From an uncultured Ruminiclostridium sp. (GTDB taxonomy: Bacteria > Bacillota > Clostridia > Oscillospirales > Ruminococcaceae): 64,000 nucleotides of DNA. Positions 60,620 to 64,000 of this stretch are shown one piece after another (within the stretch, counting starts at the first letter, position 1; each line of letters opens with the position of its first letter). Under the pieces are notes generated by a model. That model saw only the letters and a program-made list of their open reading frames with translations, was not told the DNA's origin and did not search any database. Location of the stretch: positions 349-64,348 of the forward strand of contig CAYVZH010000010.1 in NCBI GenBank assembly GCA_964456025.1. The letters run 5' to 3'. Position numbers and translations under genes: made by a program.

Positions 60620-60642
60620 GGAGCTTTTCCGAAAGGAACCCC

Positions 60643-60671
60643 TTGACAAATCCCCCGAAATATGCTAGAAT
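60643..60671 (+). promoter_or_regulatory. Sigma-A promoter of the T-box leader
   Basis: TTGACA-17-TAGAAT with TG extension. Confidence 0.8.
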
Positions 60672-60686
60672 AACCTCAATATCCAC

Positions 60687-61030
60687 AAAGCGTTGATGGG
60701 AAAGCAGTAGGAACCGGTTTTTCCTTTCATACTGATTTTTAATCAAAAAGTGTACAAAAAATCAAGCAAAAGCTTTGATTTATGCGGTTTTGCGAAGATT
60801 TTTTGTCTACACTTTTATTAAAAATCAGTATCAGAGACCCCGCGGCAGGTGTGAGCGGGGAGGAGCCCGGTTCTCGAATTACCTCCCGGAGCGGCAGCCG
60901 GAACGGGTTTCCTTCGGATTCCCCACTACGGCGCACGGGCCCGCCCGTTACAGCGGATCATAGTAATAAACCGAGGTGGTACCGCGATCTTTCGCCCTCT
61001 TTTGGCATTACGCCAAAGGAGGTTATTTTT
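60687..61030 (+). ncRNA. T-box riboswitch, probable Tyr specifier (UAC), interrupted in Stem I
   Basis: GCGTTGATGGGA..AGTAG 5' end, AGAGA, GGTGTGA loop, GAATTAC-CTCCCGGAG specifier region, CCGTTA, antiterminator AGGTGGTACCGCG..CGCCCT, terminator CTCTTTTGGC/GCCAAAGGAG plus T run. Confidence 0.88.
60730..60830 (+). mobile_element. Family A palindromic MITE-like element inside the T-box
   Basis: TACTGATTTTTAAT/ATTAAAAATCAGTA termini, 101 bp, TCA direct repeats at 60727-29 and 60831-33. Confidence 0.85.
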
Positions 61031-61049
61031 TTAAAAGGAGACGAGAACG

Positions 61050-61937
61050 CTGAAAACGATCCCCGCAAAGACCATTCTCCAGAAAAACAAATCGACCGCC
61101 TGGTTCGGGAACGACTATAACATGAACCTTTATCGGGGCTGCTGCCACGGCTGCATTTACTGCGACAGCCGGAGCGAATGCTATCGGATCGAGGATTTCG
61201 ACGAGGTGCGGGCAAAGGAAAATGCGCTCCCGATCCTTCGGGACGAGCTTCGCCGAAAGGTTCGCGGCGGCGTGATCGGGACGGGGAGCATGAGCGACCC
61301 GTATAATCCCTTTGAGGCGACCGAGCTTCTCTCGCGCCACGCGGCGGAGCTGATCGACGCGTTCGGCTTCGGGCTTACGGTCATTACGAAAAGTACGCTC
61401 CTTACCCGCGATATTGACGTTTTTCAAGGCATTCGGGAGCATTCGCCGATCCTGCTCAAAATGACGGTCACGACGGCGGACGACGCGCTGTCCCGCCTTG
61501 TCGAGCCGAACGCCCCGCCCTCCTCGGAACGCTTCGCGGCGCTGAAAACGCTCGCGGACGCGGGACTTTTTACGGGGATCACGCTGATGCCCGTTCTCCC
61601 GTTCCTTGAGGACAGCGACGAAAATATCCGCACGATCGTAAGAACGGCAAAGCAAAGCGGCGTCCGCGTGATCTATCCCGCCTTCGGCATGACCCTCCGC
61701 GATCGGCAGCGGGATCATTATTTCGCCGCGCTCGACCGCCTTTTCCCCGAAGAGAAGCTGTCCGAGCGGTATCGGAAGCAGTTCGGGAATTACTACGAGT
61801 GCCGCTCGCCGCGGGTGAAGGCGCTCTGGCGCGTTTTTACCGAGGAATGCGAAAAGGCGGGGATCCTGTACGAAATGCGGGATATTATCCGCGCCTATCG
61901 GCAGGGATATGAGGAGCAGCAATTAACGTTTTTTTAA
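61050..61937 (+). CDS. Radical SAM protein (SplB/Rv2578c-like), probable CTG start
   Basis: CCHGCIYC = CxxxCxxC; GSMSDPY; ITKS. The in-frame extension KTIPAKTIL begins at CTG 9 nt after AAGGAG. Confidence 0.85.
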   Translation: MKTIPAKTILQKNKSTAWFGNDYNMNLYRGCCHGCIYCDSRSECYRIEDFDEVRAKENALPILRDELRRKVRGGVIGTGSMSDPYNPFEATELLSRHAAELIDAFGFGLTVITKSTLLTRDIDVFQGIREHSPILLKMTVTTADDALSRLVEPNAPPSSERFAALKTLADAGLFTGITLMPVLPFLEDSDENIRTIVRTAKQSGVRVIYPAFGMTLRDRQRDHYFAALDRLFPEEKLSERYRKQFGNYYECRSPRVKALWRVFTEECEKAGILYEMRDIIRAYRQGYEEQQLTFF

Positions 61938-62162
61938 AGTTAAAGGTATCAACCTCCCGAACCCCTTGCGCTGTAACGATTTCATAGATTCGAGTAACGA
62001 TTGGTACACAAGTACTTTATTTCAGCACAGAACGGCAAATCGAAATCCGGTAAGGCAGGATAGCATGAGGAAGCTGAAATTGCTCAAAACACCAACTGAT
62101 AACGGAATAACAGATCCGGTTATACACAGAGATAACTTTCATGTTTGCGGAGGCGTTTTAAC

Positions 62163-62653
62163 TTGGAAAAGTATTTTGAGATATTAAAAGAAAACGGGGC
62201 TGATTTAGCCATAAAGATAACGGCTGATACCATAGTGACGGCAGCCTGGACAGTCTATCGCTGCAAATACGGGTGCGATACTTATGGGAAAAGCCACTGC
62301 TGTCCGCCGAATTGTCCCACATGGAAAGAAACGCAGGAAATGATAAACTGCTTTCACTACGGGATTCTGTTCAGATGCCATGAAATGAGCATAGTGACGC
62401 CTCTTGCCGTAAAAACGGCGCGAGAGTTGTTTTTGGACGATTATTACAAAGTTATTGCTTTTGGCAGCGGACCATGCAAGAAATGCCAGACATGCAATCC
62501 GGACCGCTGTAATTTTCCGGGCAAAACCGTTCCATCTATGGAAGCGTGTGGAATTGATGTTTTGCAACGGTAAGGAACAACAATCTTGAAATCCATACAT
62601 TACGAGAAAAAGATGATATTCAGAACCACTTTGGGCTTATATTGGTTGAATGA
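62163..62653 (+). pseudogene. DUF2284-like Cys-rich metal-binding protein with a single-base frameshift
   Basis: CKYGC..CCPP, GPCKKCQTC, PSMEACGIDV. Adding one T to the run at 62560-63 gives ..GIDVFATVRNNNLEIHTL..QNHFGLILVE*. Confidence 0.75.
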
Positions 62654-62839: not shown

Positions 62840-63319
62840 ATGATAAGGCAAGCGGAAAAAACCGATCTGCCGAATCTTACGGCGCTTTTCCGACAGCTTC
62901 ATGCGCATCACGTCCGGATCAAGCCCGAATCCTTCCGAATGCCGGAGGATCAATGGTTTTCCGAACGGATCGGCGGAATTCTGGACGACGGCGAAATGAC
63001 CGTTCTCGTAAGCGTTGGAGCGGGCGGCGATCTGAACGGCTATGCGGCAGTACGGATCATGACCGTCGATTCCGCCGAAAGGATCCCACGGAAAATGTGC
63101 TATATTGAATGCTTCGCGGTGGCGGAAAGCGCGCGCCGGAAAGGGATCGGAACGGCGCTTTTCGACGCGGTGAAGATGTTCGCGAGGAAAAACGGCTGCG
63201 GGAGCGTTCAGCTCGGTGTTACCGCGGTCAATACGGACGCTGTCCGATTTTATGAAAAAATGGGGCTTGTCCCGCGAACCGTACAAATGGAAATACGGTC
63301 TGTCGAAGAAGAGAAATAA
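62840..63319 (+). CDS. GNAT family N-acetyltransferase
   Basis: YIECFAVAESARRKGIGTALF..NTDAVRFYEKMG. Confidence 0.9.
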   Translation: MIRQAEKTDLPNLTALFRQLHAHHVRIKPESFRMPEDQWFSERIGGILDDGEMTVLVSVGAGGDLNGYAAVRIMTVDSAERIPRKMCYIECFAVAESARRKGIGTALFDAVKMFARKNGCGSVQLGVTAVNTDAVRFYEKMGLVPRTVQMEIRSVEEEK

Positions 63320-63324
63320 AAGAG

Positions 63325-63660
63325 AAGTATTATTTTGCAGGGGCGCTGCCCCCGCACCCCCGCTTCCTTTTGCAGCCAAAAGGAAGCGAAAAGCAATATG
63401 GCTTTATATAGGATTATCAAGGAAGAAAGTCTTGCCAAATTCCTCAATTTATCCGAGAAAAGCCGAATCTATCAAAATTACGGTTTATAAAAAACCGTTA
63501 AAAGCAATATTAAAGTTTAGGTCAAGCCTTTTTAAAGGCTTGCGGGGTCTGGGGATGCGACAGGAGGTCGCAAGTCAAGCGCCCCAAGTGCCGCATGGAC
63601 GCGGCACAAAACAAAGCGCTTGACACAGCGTCCCTGCATCAATATATTTTTCTCTTTTTA
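63325..63660. repeat. Family B bipartite element (95-bp spacer)
   Basis: Left arm ends AATATGGCTTT (63405) and right arm starts AAAGCAATATT (63501); shares modules with 3095-3450. Confidence 0.75.
63620..63648 (+). promoter_or_regulatory. Candidate sigma-A promoter for tyrS within the repeat
   Basis: TTGACA-17-TATATT, 50 bp upstream of the tyrS ATG. Confidence 0.55.
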
Positions 63661-63697
63661 AATCTGTTTCAATAAAAAATTTCAGGAGGAATAAAAA

Positions 63698-64000
63698 ATG
63701 AAGCTTTACGAAGAACTCGTCCGCCGCGGGCTGATCGCGCAGGTAACGGACGAAAAAGAGATCAGCGAAATGATCAACGAGGGGAAGGCGACCTTTTACA
63801 TCGGCTTCGACCCCACGGCGGACAGCCTGCACGTCGGGCATTTTATGGCGCTTTGCCTCATGAAGCGGCTCCAGCAGGCGGGAAATAAGCCGATCGCCCT
63901 GCTCGGCGGCGGGACGGGCATGATCGGCGATCCGTCGGGAAAAACCGATATGCGGAAGATGATGACGAAGGAGACGATCGAGCACAATATCGCCTGCTTT
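63698..64000 (+). CDS. tyrS: Tyrosine--tRNA ligase (3' truncated by window edge)
   Basis: AGGAGG RBS; [45 protein letters not shown]. Confidence 0.96.

Follow-up and report, generated by a model that had tools for sequence, protein, structure and literature searches.

A MITE inserted in Stem I of a predicted tyrosine T-box leader from an uncultured Ruminiclostridium

Results

A tyrosine T-box leader and its operon

Near the end of the window (the whole 64-kb stretch of uncultured Ruminiclostridium sp. DNA that was analysed) lies a leader followed, on the same strand, by a radical-SAM gene, genes for a DUF2284 protein and a GNAT acetyltransferase, and the 5' part of tyrS (Table 1). The segment 60678-61035 (+) is almost certainly a transcription-attenuating T-box leader for tRNA-Tyr, with the specifier UAC, into Stem I of which a 101-bp MITE has transposed. 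Its terminator overlaps the 3' strand of the antiterminator at CCCUC, making the two structures mutually exclusive, and both motifs of the distal Stem I platform, AGAGA and UGUGA, are present and either invariant or conserved. Across nine aligned leaders, no variation is seen in AGAGA, GGUG or the specifier TAC. GAA-U-UAC aligns at the specifier position of the Rfam model RF00230 and is followed by C, where T-boxes usually have a purine; the base at this position, 60883, is also C in loci L010-L012, and G or A in more distant relatives. The promoter-like site of the leader is kept in alleles that lack the MITE (hereafter empty alleles, as opposed to filled ones). Each locus holds a single T-box according to an Rfam scan of the loci, and a second one directly upstream of tyrS was looked for in the window and not found.

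Table 1. Features of the leader and of the downstream genes (window coordinates)
Feature	Position	Strand	Remarks
Promoter-like site of the leader	60643-60671	+	TTGACA, 17 nt, TAGAAT with TG; 11/12 consensus matches
Stem I 5' strand	60690-60729	+	Helices pair as in empty alleles passing RF00230; K-turn/GA region GUUGAUGGG; AGUA S-turn half, 60706-60709; GGAACCGG pairs with CCGGUUC, UCC with GGA
Left TCA of the target duplication	60727-60729	+	3' end of the Stem I 5' strand
MITE copy	60730-60830		101 bp; one long imperfect hairpin, TACTGATTTTTAAT...ATTAAAAATCAGTA
Right TCA of the 3-bp target-site duplication	60831-60833	+	Final A is base 1 of AGAGA
AGAGA pentaloop ('AG bulge' T-loop of the interdigitated double T-loop platform)	60833-60837	+	Invariant in nine aligned leaders; consensus of PMC7583486
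Distal helix CCCCGC/GCGGGG and distal loop GGCAGGUGUGA	60838-60865	+	UGUGA, 60850-60854, fits UGxRA
Stem I 3' strand and specifier loop	60866-60892	+	From the Rfam alignment; also UCCC helix and GGAGC; GAA, 60876-60878; specifier UAC, 60880-60882; next base C, 60883
Antiterminator	60973-60999	+	T-box sequence AGGUGGUACCGCG, 60974-60986; UGGU bulge, 60977-60980; model positions 186-219
Intrinsic terminator	60996-61032	+	11-bp stem (60996-61022) with 6 GC pairs, then T run
Radical-SAM gene	61050-61937	+	Rv2578c/PA0069/SPL-like, 295 aa; first regulated gene, intact
DUF2284 metal-binding protein gene	62145-62573	+	Lower-GC segment; absent here in empty L270 and L274
GNAT acetyltransferase gene	62840-63319	+	
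Promoter-like site upstream of tyrS	63620-63648	+	TTGACA-17-TATATT, 11/12; 48 nt upstream of tyrS, in a repeat-rich polymorphic spacer
tyrS, 5' part	63697-64000	+	Tyrosyl-tRNA synthetase, HVGH motif; runs off the window end

Downstream of the leader, the gene content agrees with the amino acid of the specifier: the order T-box, radical-SAM gene, tyrS is conserved. Of the 30 closest loci, 26 have tyrS downstream of the radical-SAM gene and in the same orientation, and L274 shows the order radical-SAM, GNAT, tyrS with a gap of 67 nt before tyrS. Judging from gene order, these loci constitute a conserved operon of Ruminococcus and Oscillospiraceae composed of a Tyr T-box, the radical-SAM gene, optional genes and tyrS. 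The UAC specifier and the UGGU bulge are explained by the leader being the T-box of a tyrS operon. Literature linking Tyr T-boxes to radical-SAM genes was searched for and none was found.

The radical-SAM protein scores below the family cut-offs, and its gene evolves with a dN/dS of 0.09-0.13 relative to relatives. The start (61047-61052) is apparently CTG, with a ribosome-binding site, GGAGA, 9 nt upstream; gene callers place it at the internal ATG 61122, losing 24 conserved residues. Elsewhere the start reads ATG-CTG (L010), TTG (L266 and alleles of the type seen in metagenome run X1) or CTG (L270). Decay of the gene, as a lost start codon might signal it, was considered and rejected, because CTG is shared with L270, which is empty, so that the start codon is unrelated to the insertion.

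The segment 61950-62830, which includes the DUF2284 gene, has a GC content of 0.36-0.48, compared with 0.58-0.67 in the radical-SAM gene, and in L270 and L274 the GNAT gene directly follows the radical-SAM gene; the DUF2284 segment is probably a separate insertion into the operon. The GNAT-tyrS spacer (63320-63696) is built from other very high-copy repeats, with a depth of ~5750x at 63514-63537 against ~10-50 in the flanks, and with repeat halves that in other copies are joined with variable skips of 87-108 nt. A contig from metagenome run X8 skips from 63295 to 63670 (374 nt), indicating that the spacer is itself polymorphic.

Empty alleles and polymorphism of the insertion

Orthologous loci were found through the radical-SAM protein encoded just downstream of the leader, and more were added from members of the same 90%-identity protein cluster. 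The closest of them (L010; 94% amino-acid identity) is empty and reads CCTCCTTTCAGAGACCCCGCGG, in the context ...GATCCCTCCTTTCAGAGACCCCGCGG..., and empty alleles in general read ...CCTTTCAGAGACC..., which equals the window minus exactly 104 bp, namely 60730-60830 and one TCA. The empty loci comprise L010, L264-L268, L270-L272, L274-L277 and L279. In the nine-leader alignment the insert stands out as one block that only the window contains, and none of the more than 20 relatives' leaders examined is expanded at the insertion position. Among contigs that encode an identical radical-SAM protein, L003 spans the filled leader and is identical to the window, and L004-L009 start inside the element. 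A search of metagenome contigs with the radical-SAM protein returned nothing closer than 70% identity.

To survey the alleles, Logan contigs of gut-metagenome runs were compared with the window. The filled allele was found in six runs (X1, X2, X3, X4, X6 and X7), with contigs crossing a junction with 0 mismatches in X4 and X7. The empty allele, in which 60726 is joined to 60831 with 104 nt skipped, was found in X5 (depth 7.7; 4 differences in 341 nt) and X8 (depth 20.4), and in X4 the filled allele is accompanied by a diverged empty one, CCTTACAGAGA. As read from these comparisons, the insertion in the T-box is derived, recent and segregating, with close strains keeping the uninterrupted leader.

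Filled strains in X1, X2 and X6 carry a further insertion of 585 nt upstream, between duplicated copies of 60636-60673 (38 nt, including the T-box promoter). It consists of a gene for a zeta-toxin-like protein of 187-190 aa, whose match to Zeta_toxin is faint (L266, 637-1200; L279, 629-1201), and in both L266 and L279 this gene is present while the MITE site is empty. The filled allele thus occurs on two flanking backgrounds, with and without the zeta-toxin-like gene, and this uncoupling of the MITE from the flanking haplotype suggests recombination or, alternatively, recurrent gain and loss.

The effect of the insert on recognition of the leader was gauged with the T-box covariance model RF00230 (gathering threshold 93 bits), for which the natural empty alleles served as the insert-free test. 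The filled leader gave no match at threshold, either in the window or in the identical L003; in E-value mode it scored 58.6 bits, with the 3' two-thirds aligning well but the 5' half of Stem I wrongly placed within the insert. Empty alleles scored 99.5, 100.6, 100.9, 102.5, 105.0 and 107.4 bits. Because natural insert-free leaders pass, the insertion alone accounts for the filled leader falling below threshold. This comparison, which the first-pass annotation of the locus had proposed, bears out its view that Stem I is normal once the insert is removed. The same annotation had predicted the empty allele as the leader minus 60730-60830 and one TCA, which L010 matches exactly and to which many relatives and the X5 and X8 contigs add further empty cases; it had also named, as a finding that would speak against an insertion, a 101-bp block constant among relatives, and these instead carry an uninterrupted leader. 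Its assignment of the leader to tyrosine sensing is in line with the specifier, UAC, and with a co-oriented tyrS further downstream.

The insert and its place in Stem I

The insert (60730-60830) is 101 nt long and has a GC content of 26%, compared with roughly 55-65% in the surrounding locus. Its inverted arms, 40 nt each and 83% complementary (60724-60763 and 60797-60836), reach into the flanks, and its RNA folds into a hairpin of ~45 bp at -36.4 kcal/mol, far below the -13.3 ± 2.7 kcal/mol of shuffled sequences (z = -8.61; none of the 200 shuffles was as stable). The element is present once in the 64-kb window. Consensus scans found neither a promoter nor a terminator inside it, the ORFs that run across it are chance frames only, and Rfam returned only chance microRNA-like matches on it. 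The near-perfect 101-bp hairpin with a TCA duplication described in the first-pass annotation is therefore upheld, and its placement of the insert right next to the AG bulge holds as to adjacency but can be refined: the first A of AGAGA is part of the duplicated TCA, so that the insertion point is the very 5' edge of the T-loop. The target duplication regenerates an intact AGAGA on the 3' side of the element, and the 5' neighbour of this motif is the ~45-bp hairpin in the filled allele instead of the linker UUUC.

Folding with ViennaRNA raised the probability that AGAG pairs with the upstream CUUU to 0.58-0.88 in the filled allele, against 0.05 or less in the empty one, whereas keeping AGAGA unpaired in the filled allele costs only 0.1 kcal/mol. 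The minimum-energy fold retains every canonical Stem I helix, with the element as an independent arm. Given these retained helices and the small cost, secondary structure alone predicts a separable side arm.

A MITE family of gut Oscillospiraceae

The insert is a copy of a high-copy MITE family found in gut Oscillospiraceae and Ruminococcus genomes. One genome per species was scanned with a pattern from the element interior, and the conservation of the interior across the family is partly an ascertainment effect of this pattern. The scan yielded 82 family stretches, every one of them from gut MAGs assigned to Oscillospiraceae, Ruminococcus or Clostridia, in dozens, up to ~25 per genome, with CAKSKU01 and CALANW01 among the genomes rich in copies; earlier scans with terminal-repeat patterns had given 3 true relatives and many chance matches in Bacteroidota. 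The family ends are TACTAAT...ATTAGTA, and there are two size classes of ~100 and ~117 nt, the latter with an extra mini-hairpin (AGCTGTT...AACAGCT) in the loop. Identical 3-nt flanks were present at 65 of the 78 complete copies (TTA at 58, TCA at 4, TAA at 2 and TGA at 1), indicative of a 3-bp TNA target duplication, mostly TTA. A TA target duplication of the IS630-like kind was ruled out, since just one TCA, and no additional TA, is present at the empty site. Nine pairs in the arms show compensatory changes across the family, and subfamilies (L105-L183, e.g. L113, L119, L108 and L133) differ at the sub-terminal arm positions 8-17 with complementarity kept.

Summed over 60741-60802, word depth in gut metagenomes is 30-80 times as high as in the flanks, in the company of many different flanking sequences, and it is this high copy number that makes assemblies break inside the element. 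No autonomous insertion sequence with matching ends was found in the ~260 loci searched, and no copies of the element were found in viral contigs. A regular-expression search for other T-boxes struck by the family, near 80 copies, recovered only one T-box-like motif, 741 nt from a copy. The element is small and non-coding, has inverted arms and a target duplication, occupies many loci and is polymorphic for presence and absence; it has every feature of a MITE except an identified transposase. TNA or TAA is duplicated by IS5-family groups (IS1031/IS427/ISL2) and by eukaryotic PIF/Harbinger elements, and the 3-bp TNA duplication that the insert has in common with them is a lead only.

Several other copies and relatives deserve mention. 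A ~158-nt element with related ends, TACTAATTTTGAATC, on both sides (L152, 5982-6140; L155, 1489-1647) could represent a further subfamily of the MITE or something related to it. In an uncultured Clostridia MAG (L001, 2070-2180), a copy separates a promoter-like region from the ribosome-binding site of a cysK-like gene and represents another 5'-UTR insertion. The RNA runs examined consisted of Logan contigs of diverged strains; in one of them (X23), over 60707-60853, MITE-family sequence in the contigs reaches a depth of ~4470, compared with ~10 for the radical-SAM gene, which suggests that many MITE copies are transcribed, though DNA carry-over is possible. A published description of this MITE family was not found in the literature examined.

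Discussion

Likely consequences for tRNA-dependent control

The apex of Stem I is an interdigitated double T-loop, formed by AGAGA and UGxRA as a six-layer motif, which stacks on the tRNA elbow, and mutations that disable it significantly compromise transcriptional T-boxes (PMC7583486). We consider it somewhat favoured, as an explanation of the whole, that a MITE has entered this platform of a Tyr T-box and brought about a partial loss of control. Within it, partial loss of tRNA-dependent antitermination is the likeliest outcome, one on which we place about even confidence. Secondary structure alone fits either outcome, and the choice would fall to tertiary docking. The element RNA would fold on itself as a hairpin of ~45 bp, so that a three-way junction would replace the short unpaired UUUC linker that joins the AGAGA T-loop to the proximal helix of Stem I. 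Stacking on the tRNA elbow requires the double T-loop platform to close off Stem I at a set distance and angle relative to the specifier, and a bulky helix at its 5' edge, together with the newly available AGAG/CUUU pairing, should make the capture of tRNA-Tyr slower or weaker. The terminator would then win more often, and expression of the radical-SAM, DUF2284 and GNAT genes would be lower and less inducible by tyrosine starvation, with tyrS possibly buffered by the promoter-like site just upstream of it. Counter to such impairment, the insertion leaves AGAGA, UGUGA, the specifier, the antiterminator and the terminator intact in sequence. Because the 3' strand of Stem I comes after the insertion point, the time from completion of Stem I to the terminator is unchanged. 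The presence of the filled allele in several samples and on two backgrounds, with the radical-SAM ORF intact, implies that it is not strongly deleterious.

The strongest competitor, although less probable than impairment, is that the hairpin forms a neutral side arm, leaving the flexible linker 5' of AGAGA and pointing away from the tRNA-binding face, with near-normal regulation. The minimum-energy fold and the fold constrained to keep AGAGA free preserve the Stem I helices in full and lie 0.1 kcal/mol apart in energy, AGAGA is rebuilt by the target duplication, and the empty allele already has 3-4 unpaired linker nucleotides at the insertion spot. The persistence of the filled allele in many samples and two backgrounds and the low dN/dS of the intact radical-SAM gene (0.09-0.13) fit as well, although dN/dS mostly reflects the time before the insertion. 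T-boxes elsewhere do tolerate conserved lineage-specific insertions, such as stem Sa (PMC9177973), but a 45-bp helix at the edge of a tightly stacked platform (PMC7583486) is a large perturbation, and not one of the more than 20 relatives' leaders is expanded at this position. Full function of the T-box despite a 101-nt hairpin at the edge of the double T-loop is, in our estimate, rather unlikely. Were it so, the platform that binds the tRNA elbow would tolerate a three-way junction, and MITE hairpins on their way to becoming lineage-specific riboswitch expansions would have been caught here at the polymorphic stage.

A main effect that is independent of tRNA is improbable. The double-stranded arm could act as a signal for processing or decay, e.g. 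by RNase III, or as a pause or weak termination site, for which the candidate within the insert is an internal hairpin, GCAAAAGC...GGUUUUGC, followed by GAAGAUUUUUU. Transcribed Correia MITEs are cleaved by RNase III. The ~45-bp hairpin is far more stable than expected by chance, the 3' arm is U-rich, and MITE-family sequence is abundant in one RNA run; RNase III cleavage is also documented for the met T-box leader of S. aureus (PMC7913692). The scan for terminators, however, came up empty within the insert, the AU-rich internal stem has a loop of 12 nt and ends 5 nt before the U run, and cleavage after the regulatory decision would leave attenuation itself unchanged. Finally, we regard it as practically ruled out that the 101 bp result from chimeric assembly or constitute a Stem I expansion fixed in this lineage: Logan contigs do break inside the element, but copy number explains these breaks, and the independent NCBI metagenome contig L003 spans the filled leader identically, contigs from several runs cross both junctions with 0 mismatches and close relatives carry empty alleles.

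Comparison with known systems

The leader resembles the tyrS-type transcriptional T-boxes (RF00230; prototype Bacillus subtilis tyrS) in its K-turn region, S-turn, UAC specifier, T-loops, AGGUGGUACCGCG, UGGU bulge, terminator and promoter, and in having tyrS in the regulated operon. Unlike these, it has a Stem I broken by a 101-nt mobile hairpin and a C after the specifier, and its operon begins with the radical-SAM gene and has tyrS 2.6 kb downstream. With the staphylococcal glyS T-box, which is functional, it shares an extra helix within the T-box architecture. Stem Sa of the latter lies in the terminator/antiterminator domain, is conserved across the genus and has no known transposable-element origin (PMC9177973), whereas the helix described here sits in the Stem I platform, is polymorphic within the species and is a transposable element with a target duplication.

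Among bacterial MITEs, Correia elements duplicate TA, whereas the gut Oscillospiraceae family duplicates TNA. By description, co-transcribed MITEs such as Correia/CREE of Neisseria, RUP/BOX/SPRITE of Streptococcus pneumoniae and ERIC (PMC10969869) are similar to the family in being ~100-150 bp long and non-coding, in having terminal inverted repeats and a short target duplication, and in occurring in tens of copies per genome, mostly in intergenic regions or 5' UTRs, with a stable RNA hairpin. They differ from it in that its hosts are gut Oscillospiraceae and that the present copy lies inside a structural motif of a riboswitch. Possible riboswitch-like motifs within MITEs are discussed in PMC10969869, which mentions no MITE in a T-box structural motif. 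A full-text literature search also found no MITE inserted in such a motif. It is well known that transposable elements land in leaders, and the event is of this known kind and establishes no new principle; what sets it apart is an unusually clean record, a new element family and an informative position.

Significance

A MITE family with a TNA duplication, of ~100 or ~117 bp and with tens of copies per genome, is now defined in abundant gut Oscillospiraceae. On the practical side, annotation by covariance models misses riboswitches with such insertions, the filled leader scoring 58.6 bits against a threshold of 93. The filled and empty alleles form a natural pair in near-identical strains, which could be used to test how much structural insult the Stem I platform tolerates. 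The locus also illustrates, at the level of predicted structure, one way in which a mobile element may rewire or break the amino-acid-responsive control of an aminoacyl-tRNA synthetase operon.
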